A DNA stretch of 64,000 nucleotides, taken from the NCBI RefSeq assembly GCF_003991155.1, contig NZ_CP031295.1. The stretch is one strand, 5' to 3'. This DNA comes from Escherichia coli (lineage in GTDB: Bacteria; Pseudomonadota; Gammaproteobacteria; Enterobacterales; Enterobacteriaceae). Positions within the stretch are counted from its first letter, which is position 1. Each line of letters starts with the position of its first letter. The notes below the pieces were generated by a model. The model was not told where the DNA came from. It did no database searches and saw only the letters and a list, made by a program, of their open reading frames with translations. Positions 16,225 through 54,141 of this stretch are shown here, piece after piece. The translations under genes and the position numbers were made by a program.

Positions 16225-16870
16225 TGTTCCTGATGTTGTTGTTCCTTTATCTGCTGCTCTGATTCTGACTACTGCAGTGTTGTTCTGTCTGCCGGGCGCA
16301 CCTTCGGCTCCCGGCTGCCTGGCGGCATCCGGTCGTCAGGCCCGACTCCGACAGGCAGCTGCTGGCGCACCCGCCAGTCTCCGCCGAACCCGCTGGCGCG
16401 GTTTCGGGCTGTCGCTACGGTCCGATGCGTGAAAACCCCGGGCTTGCAGCGACCGTTCCGGTCGCGCCACCCTTGTCGCGCCGTGGCCTGCGCTCCCGGC
16501 ATCCCGGCAAAAGGCCGCCGGGATGTAAGGGGCAACGCCGTTTCGCGCACGCGCTCTCCGTCGTTGCGGCGGGTCCCTGCTCATTGCCTGCCGGTGCCAC
16601 ACACCCGTATGAGTCCCTGTCGCCGGGGGCTGATACAGCCACAACCTGCCGCACTGACTGTCCAGGGTAAATGAACAGCCCACAAAATTTTTTACCCAAA
16701 ACCCGGTAAAAAATTTTGCGTTCTGCCCAGGACAGGTGCGTCAGGCCGTGGCAGTGATGCCCCTTGCGGCGAAGGTTCTCAAACGGGTGAAGTTCATACC
16801 ACAGGGAATACAGCAGCAGGTTCCCGCGAAACGTCAAAACCGCGGCTCCCGAAACTCAACGGGTGATGTT
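16225..16870 (+). repeat. GC-rich structured repeat, copy 1 (Frpo/ssi-like single-strand promoter candidate)
   Basis: About 650 bp near-identical to 19510-20185 and 24965-25608; internal palindrome AAAATTTTTTACC...GGTAAAAAATTTT at 16684-16718. Confidence 0.7.
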
Positions 16871-19509: not shown

Positions 19510-20185
19510 GTTACTGATGTTGTTGTTCCTGCTACTGTTCTTCTTTTTCCTGCTGCTCTGATTCTGACTACTGCAGTGTTGTCCTGTCTGCCGGGCGCAC
19601 CTTCGGCTCCCGGCTGCCTGGCGGCATCCGGTCGTCAGGCCCGACTCCGACAGGCAGCTGCTGGCGCACCTGCCAGTCTCCGCCGAACCCGCTGGCGCGG
19701 TTTCGGGCTGTCGCTACGGTCCGATGCGTGAAAACCCCTGGCTTGCAGCGACCGTTCCGGTCGCGCCGCCTCTGTCGCGCCGTGGCCTGCGCTCCTGGCA
19801 TCCCGGCAAAAGACCGCCGGGATGTAAGGGGCAACGCCGTTTCGCAAACCGCGCTTCACGTCGTTGCGGCGGGTCCCTGCCCGTTGTTCTGTCCGGTGCC
19901 ATTCACCTGTTTAAGCCCCTGTCGCCGGGGGCAAAGACAGCCACAACCGTCTCCGCCAGTCCAGGGGTGAAATGTACATCCCGCAAAACTTTTTGCCCAA
20001 AAGCAGGCAAAAACTTTTGCGGGATGTACATTTCACCCCCGGACAGTCGTTTCCGTCCGTGGCAGTGATGCCCCTTGCGGCGAAGGTTCTCAAAAAGGTG
20101 ATGGTGAATACCGGAGGGAACAAAAGGCAGGTCCCCGCAAAACGTCAAAACCGCGGCTCCCGAAACTCAAAAGATGATGGGGGCT
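19510..20185 (+). repeat. GC-rich structured repeat, copy 2 (Frpo/ssi-like), upstream of ssb
   Basis: Near-identical to copies 1 and 3; long hairpin 19962-20041 (GGGGTGAAATGTACATCCCGCAAAACTTTTTGCC ... GGCAAAAACTTTTGCGGGATGTACATTTCACCCC) with a single central mismatch. Confidence 0.7.
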
Positions 20186-20212
20186 GAAAACATCAACAGA
20201 AGGAGGCACATC

Positions 20213-24964: not shown

Positions 24965-25608
24965 ATTCTCTTTTTCTTCCTGCTCTGATTCTGACTACTG
25001 CAGTGTTGTCCTGTCTGCCGGGCGTACCTTCGGCTCCCGGCTGCCTGGCGGCATCCGGTCGTCAGGCCCGACTCCGACAGGCAGCTGCTGGCGCACCTGC
25101 CAGTCTCCGCCGAACCCGCTGGCGCGGTTTCGGGCTGTCGCTACGGTCCGATGCGTGAAAACCCCTGGCTTGCAGCGACCGTTCCGGTCGCGCCGCCTCT
25201 GTCGCGCCGTGACCTGCGCTCCCGGCATCCCGGCAAAAGGCGCCGGGATGTAAGGCGCAACGCCGTTTCGCAAACCGCGCTTCACGTCGTTGCGGCGGGT
25301 CCCTGCCCGTTGTTGTGTCCGGTGCCATTCACCAGTTTAAGCCCCTGTCGCCGGGGGCATAGACAGCCACAACCGTCTCCGCCAGTCCAGGGGTGAAATG
25401 CACATCCCGCAAAACTTTTTGCCCAGAAGCAGGCAAAAACTTTTGCGGTCTGCCCCCGGACAGTCGTTTCCGGCCGTGGCAGTGATGCCCCATGCGGCGA
25501 AGGTTCTCAAACAGGTGATGGTGAATACCGGAGGGAACAAAAGGCAGGTCCCCGCAAAACGTCAAAACCGCGGCTCCCGAAACTCAACAGATGATGGGGG
25601 CTGAAAAC
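24965..25608 (+). repeat. GC-rich structured repeat, copy 3 (Frpo/ssi-like)
   Basis: Near-identical to copy 2; palindrome GCAAAACTTTTTGCC...GGCAAAAACTTTTGC at 25407-25448. Confidence 0.7.
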
Positions 25609-37964: not shown

Positions 37965-38347
37965 GTTCAACGCAGAAACCCGCCGACGTCACGGCAGAAC
38001 AACGCATCCACTGGTGGTGGATGGTGCCGGGATGCCTGGCAATGGTGTTACTGAACGCAGCCGTCAGTTACGGCATTGTCAGACTGAACGCACCGGTGAC
38101 TGTCGCCTTCAACATGAAACAGACCGTGGATGCGTTTTTTGACAGCGCCAGTCAGAAACAACTGTCAGAAGCACAGTCAAAAGCCCTTTCAGCGCGTTTT
38201 AACACGGCACTGGAAGCCAGCCTGCAGGCGTGGCAGCAGAAACACCACGCGGTCATTCTGGTGTCGCCTGCTGTGGTACAGGGGGCACCGGATATCACCC
38301 GGGAAATCCAGCAGGATATTGCCCGGCGAATGAGGGCGGAACCATGA
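37961..38347 (+). CDS. trbI: TrbI
   Basis: 128 aa; F order. Confidence 0.85.
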   Translation: MSSTQKPADVTAEQRIHWWWMVPGCLAMVLLNAAVSYGIVRLNAPVTVAFNMKQTVDAFFDSASQKQLSEAQSKALSARFNTALEASLQAWQQKHHAVILVSPAVVQGAPDITREIQQDIARRMRAEP

Positions 38348-38976
38348 GATGCCGGGGGCTGATTGCCCTGCTGATATGGGGGCAGAGTGTGGCCGCCGCC
38401 GATCTTGGTACCTGGGGCGATCTGTGGCCGGTAAAGGAGCCGGACATGCTGACGGTGATCATGCAGCGCCTGACGGCACTGGAGCAGTCCGGTGAGATGG
38501 GCCGGAAAATGGATGCCTTTAAGGAGCGGGTGATCCGCAACAGTCTGCGGCCCCCTGCCGTGCCCGGTATCGGACGCACGGAGAAATACGGCAGCCGGTT
38601 GTTTGACCCGTCCGTCAGACTGGCTGCGGATATCCGGGATAACGAAGGGCGGGTGTTTGCCCGTCAGGGTGAAGTGATGAATCCGCTGCAGTATGTTCCT
38701 TTTAACCAGACGCTGTATTTCATCAATGGCGATGATCCGGCGCAGGTGGCCTGGATGAAACGCCAGACGCCGCCCACACTGGAGAGCAAAATTATCCTCG
38801 TGCAGGGCAGTATCCCGGAGATGCAGAAAGCGCTGGACAGCCGTATTTACTTTGACCAGAACGGTGTGCTCTGCCAGCGCCTCGGCATTGATCAGGTCCC
38901 GGCACGGGTGAGCGCCGTTCCCGGCGATCGCTTCCTGAAGGTGGAATTTATTCCGGCAGAGGAGGGCAGAAAATGA
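38344..38976 (+). CDS. traW: TraW
   Basis: Signal peptide MRCRGLIALLIWGQSVAA; F order. Confidence 0.9.
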   Translation: MRCRGLIALLIWGQSVAAADLGTWGDLWPVKEPDMLTVIMQRLTALEQSGEMGRKMDAFKERVIRNSLRPPAVPGIGRTEKYGSRLFDPSVRLAADIRDNEGRVFARQGEVMNPLQYVPFNQTLYFINGDDPAQVAWMKRQTPPTLESKIILVQGSIPEMQKALDSRIYFDQNGVLCQRLGIDQVPARVSAVPGDRFLKVEFIPAEEGRK

Positions 38977-39965
38977 AGCGAGGCCTGTGGCTGCTGATGT
39001 TCTTCCTTCTCGCCGGTCATGTCCCTGCGGCGTCTGCGGATTCTGCCTGTGAGGGGCGTTTTGTAAACCCGATCACGGATATCTGCTGGAGCTGTATTTT
39101 CCCGCTCTCGCTGGGCAGTATCAAAGTCAGTCAGGGTAAGGTCCCCGACACGGCGAACCCGTCGATGCCCATTCAGATTTGTCCGGCACCGCCGCCGCTG
39201 TTCAGGCGTATCGGGCTGGCCATTGGTTACTGGGAGCCGATGGCGCTGACGGACGTCACCCGGTCACCGGGATGCATGGTTAACCTGGGCTTCAGCCTGC
39301 CGGCTTTTGGTAAAACGGCACAGGGAACGGCGAAAAAGGATGAGAAGCAGGTGAACGGGGCGTTCTATCACGTTCACTGGTACAAATACCCGCTGACGTA
39401 CTGGCTGAACATCATCACATCGCTGGGCTGTCTGGAAGGTGGTGACCTGGATATCGCTTATCTTTCTGAAATTGACCCCACCTGGACGGACAGCAGCCTG
39501 ACCACCATTCTCAATCCGGAAGCTGTCATCTTTGCCAATCCGATAGCACAGGGGGCCTGTGCAGCAGATGCCATTGCCAGCGCCTTTAATATGCCTCTCG
39601 ATGTTCTGTTCTGGTGTGCCGGTTCGCAGGGCAGTATGTACCCGTTCAATGGCTGGGTGAGTAATGAGTCCAGTCCGTTGCAGTCCTCCCTGCTGGTCAG
39701 TGAACGCATGGCGTTCAAGCTGCACCGTCAGGGCATGATTATGGAAACCATCGGGAAAAATAACGCCGTCTGTAATGAATATCCGTCCCCAATCCTGCCC
39801 AAAGAACGCTGGCGTTACCAGATGGTGAATATGTATCCGGACAGCGGGCAGTGCCACCCGTTCGGGCGCAGCGTGACCCGCTGGGAAACCGGGAAAAATC
39901 CGCCCAACACAAAGAAAAACTTCGGCTACCTGATGTGGCGTAAACGTAACTGTGTCTTCCTGTGA
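38973..39965 (+). CDS. traU: TraU
   Basis: 330 aa; F order. Confidence 0.9.
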   Translation: MKRGLWLLMFFLLAGHVPAASADSACEGRFVNPITDICWSCIFPLSLGSIKVSQGKVPDTANPSMPIQICPAPPPLFRRIGLAIGYWEPMALTDVTRSPGCMVNLGFSLPAFGKTAQGTAKKDEKQVNGAFYHVHWYKYPLTYWLNIITSLGCLEGGDLDIAYLSEIDPTWTDSSLTTILNPEAVIFANPIAQGACAADAIASAFNMPLDVLFWCAGSQGSMYPFNGWVSNESSPLQSSLLVSERMAFKLHRQGMIMETIGKNNAVCNEYPSPILPKERWRYQMVNMYPDSGQCHPFGRSVTRWETGKNPPNTKKNFGYLMWRKRNCVFL

Positions 39966-39970
39966 GGTGA

Positions 39971-40606
39971 ATGATGAAGCTGAGTATGAAATCTCTGGCA
40001 GCACTGCTGATGATGCTGAACGGGGCGGTTATGGCGTCAGAAAACGTGAACACTCCTGAAAACCGCCAGTTCCTGAAGCAGCAGGAAAATTTAAGCAGAC
40101 AACTGCGTGAAAACCTGACCATCAGCTGAAAGCCGGGCGGAGAAGCAGGTGCTGGAAACCCCTTCAGCGTTCAGATAACCATTTCTGGATGAGCTGGTTC
40201 GTAAACAGCAGGCTTCGCAGGACGGGAAACCCGGCAGGGTGCTCTGTATTTTGTGTCGTTTTCCATTCCCGAAGAGGGGCTGAAACGAATGCTGGGCGAA
40301 ACCCGGCACTACGGTATACCCGCCACACTGCGGGGCATGGTGAACAATGACCTGAAGACCACCGCTGAAGCCGTGCTGTCCCTGGTGAAAGACGGCGCGA
40401 CTGATGGTGTTCAGATCGACCCGACGCTGTTTTCACAGTACGGCATTCGCAGTGTACCGGCACTGGTGGTGTTCTGCAGTCATGGATACGACATCATCCG
40501 GGGAAACCTGCGGGTCGGCCAGGCGCTGGAGAAAGTGGCCGCCACGGGTGACTGCCGGCAGGTGGCTCATGATTTACTGGCAGGGAAAGGAGATTCCGGG
40601 AAATGA
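39971..40606 (+). pseudogene. trbC: trbC disrupted by frameshift(s): N-terminal signal-peptide part and C-terminal part in different frames
   Basis: MMKLSMKSLAALLMMLNGAVMASENVNTPENRQFLKQQENLSRQLRENLTIS stops at 40126-40128; TrbC-like continuation (SFSIPEEGLKRMLGETRH ... GDSGK) is in another frame from 40253. Confidence 0.7.
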
Positions 40607-42411
40607 AACGTATTTTACCTCTGATACTGGCTCTGGTTGCCGGCATGGCACAGGCTGACAGCAACAGTGATTACCGGGCCGGTTCTGATTTTGCTCACCA
40701 GATCAAAGGGCAGGGAAGCAGCAGTATTCAGGGCTTTAAGCCACAGGAGAGTATCCCCGGCTATAACGCGAATCCGGACGAGACAAAATATTACGGTGGC
40801 GTGACTGCCGGCGGGGATGGCGGCCTGAAAAATGACGGCACCACGGAATGGGCGACCGGTGAAACCGGAAAAACCATTACAGAGTCATTCATGAACAAGC
40901 CGAAAGACATTCTTTCACCGGATGCACCGTTTATCCAGACCGGCAGGGATGTGGTGAACCGGGCTGACAGCATTGTGGGAAACACCGGGCAGCAGTGCAG
41001 TGCGCAGGAGATTAGCAGGAGTGAATACACGAATTACACCTGTGAGCGGGATTTACAGGTGGAGCAGTACTGCACACGAACTGCCCGTATGGAGCTGCAG
41101 GGGAGTACCACATGGGAAACCCGGACGCTGGAGTATGAAATGAGTCAGCTACCTGCACGTGAAGTGAATGGTCAGTATGTTGTCTCCATTACCTCTCCCG
41201 TTACCGGTGAAATTGTCGATGCGCATTACAGCTGGAGTCGTACTTACTTGCAGAAGAGTGTACCTATGACAATTACAGTACTGGGAACCCCACTGAGCTG
41301 GAATGCCAAATACTCAGCAGATGCCTCATTTACACCAGTACAGAAAACACTGACTGCCGGTGTGGCTTTTACGTCATCTCACCCCGTCCGGGTCGGGAAT
41401 ACAAAATTCAAACGTCATACGGCAATGAAGCTGCGTCTGGTTGTCAGGGTAAAAAAAGCCTCGTACACCCCGTATGTTGTCTGGTCTGAAAGCTGCCCGT
41501 TCAGCAAGGAGCAGGGGAAACTGACAAAAACAGAATGTACGGAGGCTGGCGGGAACAGGACGCTGGTGAAAGACGGTCAGTCATACAGCATGTACCAGAG
41601 CTGCTGGGCATACCGGGACACGTATGTCACGCAGTCAGCAGACAAGGGAACCTGTCAGACCTACACCGACAATCCTGCCTGTACCCTGGTGTCACACCAG
41701 TGTGCCTTTTACTCCGAAGAAGGTGCCTGTCTGCATGAATATGCCACGTACTCCTGTGAGTCAAAAACATCCGGGAAAGTGATGGTCTGTGGGGGAGACG
41801 TATTCTGTCTCGATGGCGAATGCGATAAGGCTCAGAGCGGGCAGAGTAATGATTTTGCCGAAGCCGTTTCTCAGCTGGCGGCACTGGCCGCAGCAGGTAA
41901 GGATGTTGCGGCGCTGAACGGGGGGGATGTCCGTGCTTTCACCGGTCAGGCGAAATTTTGTAAGAAGGCTGCAGCCGGATACAGCAACTGCTGTAAGGAC
42001 AGCGGCTGGGGACAGGATATCGGGCTGGCCAAATGCAGCAGTGATGAAAAGGCCCTGGCTAAAGCAAAATCAAACAAACTGACCGTCAGCGTCGGGGAGT
42101 TCTGTTCGAAGAAAGTGCTGGGTGTCTGTCTGGAGAAAAAACGCAGCTACTGTCAGTTTGATTCGAAGCTGGCGCAGATAGTCCAGCAGCAGGGGCGCAA
42201 CGGTCAGTTGCGTATCAGTTTTGGTAGTGCGAAGCATCCTGACTGTCGGGGGATTACGGTTGATGAGCTGCAGAAAATTCAGTTCAACAGACTGGATTTC
42301 ACTAACTTCTACGAAGACCTGATGAATAACCAGAAAATCCCGGACAGTGGCGTTCTGACGCAGAAAGTGAAAGAGCAGATTGCTGACCAGCTGAAACAGG
42401 CAGGACAGTAA
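40603..42411 (+). CDS. traN: TraN (mating-pair stabilisation, Cys-rich outer membrane protein)
   Basis: 602 aa, signal peptide, many Cys; F order. Confidence 0.95.
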   Translation: MKRILPLILALVAGMAQADSNSDYRAGSDFAHQIKGQGSSSIQGFKPQESIPGYNANPDETKYYGGVTAGGDGGLKNDGTTEWATGETGKTITESFMNKPKDILSPDAPFIQTGRDVVNRADSIVGNTGQQCSAQEISRSEYTNYTCERDLQVEQYCTRTARMELQGSTTWETRTLEYEMSQLPAREVNGQYVVSITSPVTGEIVDAHYSWSRTYLQKSVPMTITVLGTPLSWNAKYSADASFTPVQKTLTAGVAFTSSHPVRVGNTKFKRHTAMKLRLVVRVKKASYTPYVVWSESCPFSKEQGKLTKTECTEAGGNRTLVKDGQSYSMYQSCWAYRDTYVTQSADKGTCQTYTDNPACTLVSHQCAFYSEEGACLHEYATYSCESKTSGKVMVCGGDVFCLDGECDKAQSGQSNDFAEAVSQLAALAAAGKDVAALNGGDVRAFTGQAKFCKKAAAGYSNCCKDSGWGQDIGLAKCSSDEKALAKAKSNKLTVSVGEFCSKKVLGVCLEKKRSYCQFDSKLAQIVQQQGRNGQLRISFGSAKHPDCRGITVDELQKIQFNRLDFTNFYEDLMNNQKIPDSGVLTQKVKEQIADQLKQAGQ

Positions 42412-43446: not shown

Positions 43447-43815
43447 ATGAGTGAAGATTATTTGAAAATGTTTACAGGTGTTGTTCTGTTAATATTTGTC
43501 ATTATTGCCGGTTATTTCTTTTCTGAGCGTAATGACAGGAAAATGTTTCTCCTGAGCTCACTGGTTTTCCTTGTTATTAATATCGCGTGTTTATATGTGC
43601 TTACCGCCAGTCTCTGGTTTCTGTGTGGTGCAATTATGAGTCAGGGCGCAGCACTGGTTGTTTCAATAGTTGCGGCCGCATTACCGGACGTTACGAGCTT
43701 CGACAGGTTCAGAAGAATATTTATCTGTATTGTGTTGTCATCGGTATGGTCCGGAGTGATGTGGTTTTTTATAAGGGGGGCTTATGACAGGCTAAGTCAT
43801 ATAAAACGGTCATAA
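43447..43815 (+). CDS. trbA: TrbA
   Basis: 122-aa membrane protein between traF and traQ. Confidence 0.75.
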   Translation: MSEDYLKMFTGVVLLIFVIIAGYFFSERNDRKMFLLSSLVFLVINIACLYVLTASLWFLCGAIMSQGAALVVSIVAAALPDVTSFDRFRRIFICIVLSSVWSGVMWFFIRGAYDRLSHIKRS

Positions 43816-51366: not shown

Positions 51367-53507
51367 ATGAGTTTTAACGCAAAGGATATGACCCAGGGCG
51401 GTCAGATTGCGTCCATGCGTATCCGCATGTTCAGTCAGATCGCCAATATCATACTTTACTGCCTGTTTATTTTTTTCTGGATCCTAGTTGGTCTGGTTTT
51501 ATGGGTAAAAATAAGCTGGCAGACGTTTGTGAATGGCTGCATTTACTGGTGGTGCACCACGCTGGAAGGCATGCGGGATTTAATCAGGTCCCAGCCGGTC
51601 TATGAGATCCAGTATTACGGCAAAACCTTCCGGATGAACGCGGCTCAGGTACTGCATGATAAATATATGATCTGGTGCGGAGAGCAGCTATGGTCCGCAT
51701 TCGTTCTGGCCACAGTTGTGGCACTGGTTATTGCCTGATTACCTTCTTTGTTGTCTCACGGATTCTGGGGCGTCAGGGTAAACAACAGAGCGAAAATGAA
51801 GTCACAGGTGGTCGTCAGCTGACAGACAATCCGAAAGACGTTGCCCGGATGCTGAAAAAGACGGCAAGGACTCCGATATACGGATTGGCGACCTGCCGAT
51901 TATCCGGGATTCCGAAATCAGAACTTCTGTCTGCACGGCACGGTCGGGGCCGGTAAGTCGGAAGTTATCCGTCGTCTGGCCAACTACGCCCGTCAGCGTG
52001 GAGATATGGTGGTGATTTATGACCGTTCAGGGAATTTGTTAAAAGTTACTATGATCCCTCCATCGATAAAATCCTGAATCCGCTGGATGCCCGCTGTGCC
52101 GCACGGGATTTGTGGAAGAGTGCCTGACACAGCCAGATTTTGATAATACCGCAAATACTCTGATCCCGATGGGGACAAAAGAGGACCCGTTCTGGCAGGG
52201 TTCAGGACGTACCATTTTTGCGGAAGCGGCATACCTGATGCGTAATGACCCCAACCGCAGCTACAGCAAACTGGTGGACACACTGCTTTCCATCAAAATT
52301 GAAAAGCTGCGTACCTTCCTGCGTAATTCACCGGCGGCCAACCTGGTGGAAGAGAAAATCGAGAAAACGGCCATATCCATCCGTGCTGTGCTGACCAACT
52401 ACGTGAAAGCCATCCGTTACCTGCAGGGGATTGAGCATAACGGTGAGTCTTTACCATCCGTGACTGGATGCGTGGTGTCCGGAAGATCAGAAAAACGGCT
52501 GGCTGTTTATCTCGTCGAATGCCGACACCCATGCCTCCCTGAAGCCGGTGATCTCCATGTGGCTGTCCATTGCCATTCGTGGTCTGCTGGCAATGGGAGA
52601 AAACCGTAACCGTCGTGTGTGGTTTTCTGTGATGAGCTACCCACGTTACACAAACTGCCGGACTGGTGGAGATCCTGCCGGAAGCCCGTAAGTTCGGTGG
52701 CTGTTATGTGTTTGGTATCCAGTCTATGCCCAGCTGGAAGATATCTACGGTGAAAGCGGCTGCCACGCTGTTTGACGTCATGAACACCCGTGCCTTTTTC
52801 GTTCTCCCAGCCATAAGATTGCAGAGTTCGCTGCCGGTGAGATTGGTGAGAAAGAGCACCTGAAAGCCAGCGAGCAGTATTCCTACGGTGCTGATCCGGT
52901 ACGTGACGGGGTATCGACCGGTAAGGATATGGAGCGTCAGACGCTGGTCAGTTATTCCGACATTCAGTCTCTGCCGGATCTGACCTGTTATGTCACCCTG
53001 CCCGGACCGTATCCGGCAGTAAAACTCTCCCTGAAATATCAGACACGACCGAAGGTCGCTCCGGAGTTTATTCCGCGTGACATCAACCCGGAAATGGAGA
53101 ACCGTCTGAGTGCCGTACTTGCCGCAAGGGAAGCAGAAGGTCGTCAGATGGCCAGCCTCTTCGAACCGGATGTCCCGGAGGTTGTTTCCGGAGAAGACGT
53201 GACTCAGGCTGAACAGCCGCAACAGCCGGTGTCTCCTGCCATCAACGATAAGAAGTCAGATGCAGGTGTGAATGTTCCGGCAGGGGGGATCGAGCAGGAG
53301 CTGAAAATGAAACCGGAAGAAGAGATGGAACAGCAACTGCCACCCGGGATCAGTGAATCCGGTGAAGTGGTGGATATGGCCGTTTATGAGGCATGGCAAC
53401 GGGAGCAGAATCCGGATATCCAGCAGAAGATGCAGCGTCGTGAAGAGGTGAACATCAATGTGCACCGGGAGCGCGGGGAGGATGTTGAGCCGGGAGATGA
53501 TTTCTGA
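51367..53507 (+). pseudogene. traD: traD (coupling protein) fragmented into at least five reading-frame segments
   Basis: TraD-like peptide runs in ORFs 51367-51738, 51675-51956, 52112-52609, 52666-52863 and 52929-53507, each in a different frame; Walker [12 protein letters not shown] is in yet another frame near 51935. Confidence 0.8.
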
Positions 53508-53515
53508 TGAACAGG

Positions 53516-53914
53516 TCAGCTCCAGTCTTCAATTCTCAGACCGTCCACACGTTCAAATTCCCGGGTGTTATTAGTCACAATAATCAGTCCCCGACTGCGG
53601 GCATGACCTGCGATCATTTGATCAAATGGCCCGACAGGGCGTCCCTGACGGGCAAGTTCTGCTCTTATCTGGCCGCTGTGTGTGGCTGCGGCAGCGTCGT
53701 AATCCAGAACATCAATGCGGGAAACAAATCCCTCGATCACAGCGAGATTACGTTCAGGCATCTGGCTTTTTTCTGCACCATATATCAGCTCCATCAGGGT
53801 GACCGAACTGATACACATTCTCCCCTGGTTCAGGTTAAAACGCTCCCTGACGCTGGCGGGTTTGTTCTTTATCGTGAAAATGCAGATGTTGGTATCGAGC
53901 ATAAACTTCAGCAT
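53516..53914 (-). CDS. vapC: VapC PIN-domain toxin
   Basis: MLKFMLDTNICIF PIN N-terminus; 132 aa. Confidence 0.85.
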   Translation of the reverse strand: MLKFMLDTNICIFTIKNKPASVRERFNLNQGRMCISSVTLMELIYGAEKSQMPERNLAVIEGFVSRIDVLDYDAAAATHSGQIRAELARQGRPVGPFDQMIAGHARSRGLIIVTNNTREFERVDGLRIEDWS

Positions 53915-54141
53915 CAGAATGACTCCCTTTCCTGCATGCCGGGCTGTTCCCTGTTATCCATAAAATCGGCGCTGACGTTGTGTCCGTCGAACCATTCGTC
54001 CCATGTCTCTCCGGCTGGCGTAATGATTCTGGTTCGTCCGACAGCAATCACTTCAACGCGTTTTACGTTTTCCGGCAATGCAACCGCTTTTGGCAGTCTG
54101 ACCGCCTGGCTGCGGTTGCTGAAAAATACGGTGGTTTCCAT
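53914..54141 (-). CDS. vapB: VapB antitoxin
   Basis: 75-aa ORF immediately upstream of, and coupled to, vapC. Confidence 0.8.
   Translation of the reverse strand: METTVFFSNRSQAVRLPKAVALPENVKRVEVIAVGRTRIITPAGETWDEWFDGHNVSADFMDNREQPGMQERESF

Follow-up and report, generated by a model that had tools for sequence, protein, structure and literature searches.

The trbC gene of an F-type transfer operon is interrupted by six one-base losses in the analysed window, a 64,000-nt stretch of Escherichia coli contig NZ_CP031295.1 (assembly GCF_003991155.1), and this disruption is most likely not a real feature of the plasmid. The sequence pattern very probably reflects a patch of uncorrected long-read consensus in an otherwise corrected sequence, and the real plasmid would in that case carry an intact trbC of 212 codons. 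This explanation is preferred because the lesions are deletions only, every error-prone motif within the affected patch is hit, no substitutions accompany the losses, no other record shares them, and noisy assemblies mirror the same sites. For these reasons the lesions look technical, and the break does not appear to be the genuine second transfer defect that had been proposed from the letters of the sequence. The same original prediction had correctly named the gene and recognised that several frame changes interrupt it. The TrbC protein of the real plasmid is most likely a product of 212 residues that is identical to the TrbC of pPK8241.

The transfer operon in the window is of the ordinary F type (IncF, MPF_F). 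Positions 22867-64000 form a single alignment block to plasmid pCREC-544_1 (record L003) at 99.54% identity, which spans the region from psiB through traM to traX, finO, and repA, and the initial 22 kb of the window share 99.9% identity with other IncF plasmids. The gene order traW-traU-trbC-traN of the MPF_F operon is conserved: traW lies at 38344-38976, the upstream neighbour traU (38973-39965, plus strand, 330 aa) and the downstream neighbour traN (40603-42411, plus strand, 602 aa) are both intact, and the stop codon of trbC and the start of traN overlap (ATGA, 40603-40606). The position between traU and traN and the stop overlapping the traN start are likewise found for the F-type TrbC (NF010290/TIGR02742/PF09673) represented by WP_000777691.1 of pPK8241. 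TrbC is a periplasmic protein with a signal sequence of 21 residues (PMC7555446), and its C-terminal domain binds the N-terminus of TraW (PMC12999216). The view that TrbC is needed for pilus assembly, on which the expected transfer defect was based, agrees with the relevant passages of PMC7555446 and PMC12999216, where the protein is described as required for F-pilus assembly and transfer with reference to Maneewannakul et al. 1991.

As written, trbC occupies 39974-40606 on the plus strand and has a length of 633 nt, compared to 639 nt in the intact alleles, with three in-frame stops. The two predicted open reading frames are present, both on the plus strand: the N-terminal ORF at 39971-40129 comprises 52 codons from an upstream ATG (51 codons from the annotated start), and the C-terminal ORF at 40253-40606 comprises 117 codons from a mechanical GTG start and holds the TrbC_Ftype domain. 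Positions 1-47 of the NF010290 profile are matched by the former and positions 96-212 by the latter, which supports the assignment of both fragments to trbC. Scored singly against NF010290, the fragments obtained 64.9 and 256.5 bits, each under the cutoff of 333, whereas the repaired gene, which equals the pPK8241 trbC, scored 445 bits; the C-terminal ORF passed the TIGR02742 model on its own with 119 bits (cutoff 66.45). The gene as written does not provide a single uninterrupted frame of approximately 212 codons, and adding the six bases of the intact alleles restores it. The signal-peptide region and the TrbC_Ftype domain are shared with the F-type TrbC of pPK8241; unlike that gene, the window has its coding sequence distributed over ORFs of 51/52 and 117 codons.

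The arrangement of the fragments differs from the original prediction in three respects. The N-terminal 45 codons are those of the intact alleles, and the ORF ends at a TGA that is created by the first deletion and located at 40127-40129, rather than at 40126-40128; the stretch CGTGAAAACCTG is found at 40106-40117. The C-terminal part had been assigned to another frame, but single-frame translation places both ORFs in one frame, with their starts 282 nt or 94 codons apart (40253 - 39971), since the net loss amounts to six bases. The 44 residues between the ORFs are still present and are spread over three frames as KPDHQLKA, AEKQVLE, PLQRSDNHF, LDELVRKQQASQDGKP, and then RQGALYFVSF. Finally, the split does not coincide with the point at which the signal peptide gives way to the mature protein. 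The region coding for the approximately 21-residue Sec signal peptide (MKLSMKSLAALLMMLNGAVMA; length according to PMC7555446) lies at 39974-40036 on the plus strand and is the same as in the intact alleles. The N-terminal ORF thus includes approximately 30 residues of the mature protein in addition to the signal peptide, and therefore the break is not at the processing site.

The individual lesions were defined by aligning the window to the intact trbC genes of pPK8241 (L001) and pECOS88, with an additional comparison to pVPS18EC0801-2 (L004). Relative to both pPK8241 and pVPS18EC0801-2, the trbC sequence has zero substitutions and lacks exactly six bases, all of them within 40110-40232. On the plus strand, the first loss shortens a run of five A to four at 40110-40113 (GAAAAC at 40109-40114). 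The second, between 40134 and 40135, removes the T of a Dcm motif CCTGG, so that GCCTGGG reads GCCGGG. The third and fourth affect adjacent runs, A4 becoming A3 at 40156-40158 and C5 becoming C4 at 40159-40162, which together convert AAAACCCCC to AAACCCC; compared with the pCREC-544_1 allele, the same two losses read as C6 to C4. The fifth, at 40185, reduces CC to C in another CCTGG Dcm motif and turns TTTCCTGG into TTTCTGG, and the sixth shortens C4 to C3 at 40230-40232 (within GGGAAACCCGG at 40224-40234), after which the original frame is regained. Two of these sites, the A5 run and the C4 run, had been singled out beforehand and proved to be real one-base losses. The accompanying statement that the lesions lie at short homopolymers holds for four of the six sites and fails for the remaining two, which are Dcm motifs CCTGG. 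Recombination with a divergent trbC allele is rejected as the source of the patch, since the patch shows no substitutions relative to pPK8241 or pVPS18EC0801-2.

All six missing bases fall inside a low-accuracy patch of at most approximately 164 nt (40087-40252), delimited on the upstream side by the last AAAA that is still complete and on the downstream side by the first complete TTTT. When an error-prone feature is defined as a run of at least four identical bases or a CCWGG motif, positions 137-265 of the intact trbC hold exactly six such features, namely A5, CCTGG, A4, C5, CCTGG, and C4. Each of these six is one base short in the window, whereas the 12 features of this kind in the rest of trbC are all unaffected. 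This correspondence was evaluated under a chance model in which six deletions are placed randomly in the 164 nt that separate the closest unaffected features on either side, where 28 positions belong to features. Under this model, the probability that all six deletions land in features is 2.4e-5, and the probability that every feature is hit exactly once is approximately 5e-7. The clustering is similarly extreme: in none of 200,000 simulations did six out of 19 randomly placed deletions come to lie within 121 nt.

Beyond the patch, the sequence is well preserved. The 41-kb alignment with pCREC-544_1 contains 167 substitutions and 21 indel columns; 19 of the latter represent bases missing from the window, and these are confined to two patches, in trbC (6) and in traD (13). 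Among 50 coding sequences mapped from pCREC-544_1, 47 have the same length and no stops, including traI (5.3 kb), traG, and traC; the exceptions are trbC (-6), traD (-13), and trbA (+1 G). The genes that flank trbC differ from their relatives through substitutions only. The block at 22867-64000 still contains 643 runs of at least four bases and 98 CCWGG sites, which, together with the 47 preserved coding sequences, indicates that the errors are local and not general.

The second low-accuracy patch lies in traD (51367-53507), where 13 single bases present in pSA186_3 and pCREC-544_1 are missing at 51731-52800 on the plus strand, in agreement with the earlier suggestion that trbC and traD carry the same type of error. 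The affected sites are runs of T3, A6, G4, T4, G3, and T5, CC and GG doublets, a GAGA repeat, and one CCTGG, and at 51757 and 52102 the window has CACGG in place of the Dcm motif CCTGG that is seen in pCREC-544_1 and pSA186_3. From its sequence, the traD patch appears to carry the same artefact signature as the trbC patch, although it is hit far less completely, with approximately one quarter of its error-prone features affected. The 3' end of trbA (43447-43795) is a separate case: a run of six G at 43770-43775 corresponds to five G in pCREC-544_1 and pECOS88 and changes the final residues before the stop from FFIRGLMTG to FFIRGAYDRLSHIKRS, and the additional G could be an over-called base of the run or a genuine variant.

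The six-deletion trbC allele was not found in the plasmid or E. coli genome collections. In tallies of the best records among 2,295 E. coli genome and 2,690 plasmid records, none reached 99% identity over 40090-40260; the best matches were 96.6% identical, with 171 nt in the window aligned to 177 nt, and the difference consists of exactly the six bases. An exact 40-mer across the first two deletions had zero matches in the GTDB representative genomes, and an exact-protein look-up found neither the 52-aa nor the 117-aa ORF product on record. Versions of these products with 51 and 105 aa are on record, on other assemblies with indels of their own. The truncated 51-aa product occurs on approximately 21-23 other public contigs, most of which are visibly noisy in that their traU and traN are fragmented too.

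The contigs retrieved through these two products show at which sites trbC is prone to indels in public assemblies, with the provision that those compared via the 51-aa product were chosen for carrying the first deletion. Two of them, L005 (GCA_013422845.1) and L014, have five of the six trbC sites in common with the window, including both CCTGG motifs; they additionally err at GGGG (position 533) and at CCAGG (position 552), where the window does not. The first CCTGG motif also lacks a base in L005, L013, and L014. Shortening of C5 to C4 is also seen in L005, L008-L010, L013, L014, L017-L019, L023, and L025, the loss in the second CCTGG is the same in L014 and related in L005, with L020 and L022 also short of a base in this motif, and the final C4 to C3 loss is common to L005 and L014. 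Contigs found via the 105-aa product carry single indels, either at the C5 run (n=5: L017-L019, L023, and L025; position 189) or in the second CCTGG (n=2: L020 and L022; position 219), and the A5 to A4 loss (position 137) is the sole trbC lesion in L006, L007, L011, and L012. Contigs with a single one-base trbC deletion often keep traU and traN intact, and in these the deletion may be either a leftover long-read error or a genuine frameshift that recurs. Altogether, the A5, C5, and CCTGG sites of trbC recur as indels in at least 15 further contigs, and since the same sites are miscalled across independent noisy assemblies, they represent recurrent trouble spots in public assemblies.

These observations bear on several explanations in which at least part of the trbC damage is biological. 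Slippage at homopolymers occurs in vivo, and natural F-like plasmids commonly lose tra functions; in them, a single frameshift, nonsense mutation, or IS insertion interrupts a transfer gene within a recognisable operon, and the window likewise has an interrupted transfer gene in such an operon. The trbC gene could be a genuine multi-hit pseudogene in which one frameshift was followed by more one-base deletions, leaving a plasmid without F-pili and, with traD broken, non-conjugative. The three in-frame stops, the disruption of traD, and the single trbC frameshifts in other public assemblies would all fit this explanation, and the C-terminal fragment, which has no signal peptide, could not enter the periplasm, the place of action of TrbC (PMC7555446). 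The pattern of the lesions nevertheless makes it improbable. Unlike natural tra pseudogenes in F-like plasmids, the window has six deletions within 121 nt with zero substitutions or insertions, in a setting where the flanking genes vary by substitution only, and no other record shares them. Real tra pseudogenes in such plasmids are typically single lesions inherited within a lineage, and Dcm sites are known to mutate from C to T by deamination and not to lose bases; the loss of T or C inside CCTGG is not slippage either. A pseudogene would likewise not be expected to have every error-prone motif hit inside the patch and none of the 12 outside it, to be absent from approximately 5,000 related records, or to reside among coding sequences of which 47 of 50 are perfectly kept, which is unlike a decaying operon. 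Neither lesions inherited by related plasmids nor substitutions of the kind left by relaxed selection were found; the variant consists of deletions at Dcm motifs and homopolymers, its sites recur in noisy assemblies, and it is absent from independent high-quality records of this allele.

A mixed origin, with one real deletion and five technical ones, is less probable again. The most plausible candidate for the real event would be the A5 to A4 loss at 40110, which alone truncates TrbC and which, being the only trbC lesion in four contigs, may mark a recurrent site of real slippage; those contigs, however, may themselves derive from long-read data, two of them (L006 and L007) have a split traN, and nothing singles out the A5 site from the other five in the same bounded patch. 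It is very unlikely that the six trbC and thirteen traD deletions are all real and arose in a local episode of -1 frameshift mutagenesis. Such an episode might occur, for example, when a Y-family polymerase fills gaps with low fidelity in the course of break repair, and umuDC-like genes are located on the plasmid at approximately 8.7-10.4 kb; the outcome would be two short tracts full of one-base losses within an operon that is pristine elsewhere. Slippage and phase variation classically occur at homopolymers, and the net loss of six bases restores the downstream frame, as low or switchable production of TrbC through programmed ribosomal frameshifting or phase variation might suggest. This last explanation would need five successive shifts past three stops, at runs of just 3-5 nt and at two sites with no runs at all, in a gene that approximately 5,000 relatives encode in one plain frame, and its probability is negligible.

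An uncorrected stretch of long-read consensus would account for the details of the trbC patch. In the proposed scenario, a stretch of at most approximately 164 nt (about 40087-40252) would be raw nanopore-type consensus in which each homopolymer of at least four bases and each Dcm-methylated CCTGG reads one base short. The six losses would shift the frame five times and then restore it by coincidence, six being a multiple of three. Polishing may have failed locally, for example in a gap of short-read coverage, or where reads mapped to several places or the segment was shared with another replicon. In nanopore consensus sequences of Enterobacteriaceae, errors at Dcm motifs (CCAGG/CCTGG) dominate, followed by errors in homopolymer length (Wick et al. 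2019, PMC6591954), and residual errors outlast short-read polishing where short-read alignment is unreliable (Polypolish, PMC8812927). The trbC lesions resemble the residual errors of these studies (PMC6591954, PMC8812927) in being confined to CCTGG motifs and homopolymers, in being deletions only, and in falling at recurrent sites. Unlike such errors, which are distributed sequence-wide, those of the window are restricted to two short segments (of at most 164 nt and of approximately 1.07 kb), and therefore a local failure of correction is indicated rather than an unpolished assembly. We infer the technical cause, the nanopore platform, and the local failure of polishing from the pattern of the bases. 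Older technologies (Sanger read ends, 454, and Ion Torrent) were set aside on similar grounds, given that Dcm motifs, and not runs, account for two of the six sites in trbC and for three in traD.

The result matters chiefly for assembly quality control. Read literally, the record would describe an F-like plasmid that is non-conjugative or makes no pili and whose trbC and traD are pseudogenes, and scoring it in this way would distort both mobility predictions and pseudogene counts. If the deletions were true, the plasmid would be without pilus assembly and without the coupling protein. The comparison provides a rule for separating artefact from biology that needs no reads: the broken gene is compared with an otherwise identical intact allele, and three questions are asked, namely whether the differences are deletions only, whether every homopolymer and CCWGG motif in a bounded patch is affected, and whether the same sites recur in noisy assemblies.

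Several minor features were observed elsewhere in the operon and on the plasmid. In traN, 20 nt present in the window at 41196-41215 are missing from pVPS18EC0801-2, where traN is unannotated, and at this position the disrupted copy appears to be that of the reference plasmid and not that of the window. A vapBC toxin-antitoxin pair with both genes intact is located on the minus strand at 53516-54141, between traD and traI as in pCREC-544_1. Upstream of an rclA-like oxidoreductase gene, the window lacks one base at position 2573 (CC to C) when compared with plasmids to which its initial 22 kb are otherwise 99.9% identical, and this site appears to be intergenic. The leading region contains three copies of a sequence of approximately 650 nt (16239-16868, 19538-20191, and 24966-25608) that are 87-97% alike; this repeat precedes ssb/psiB-type genes and is found in the reference plasmids too.
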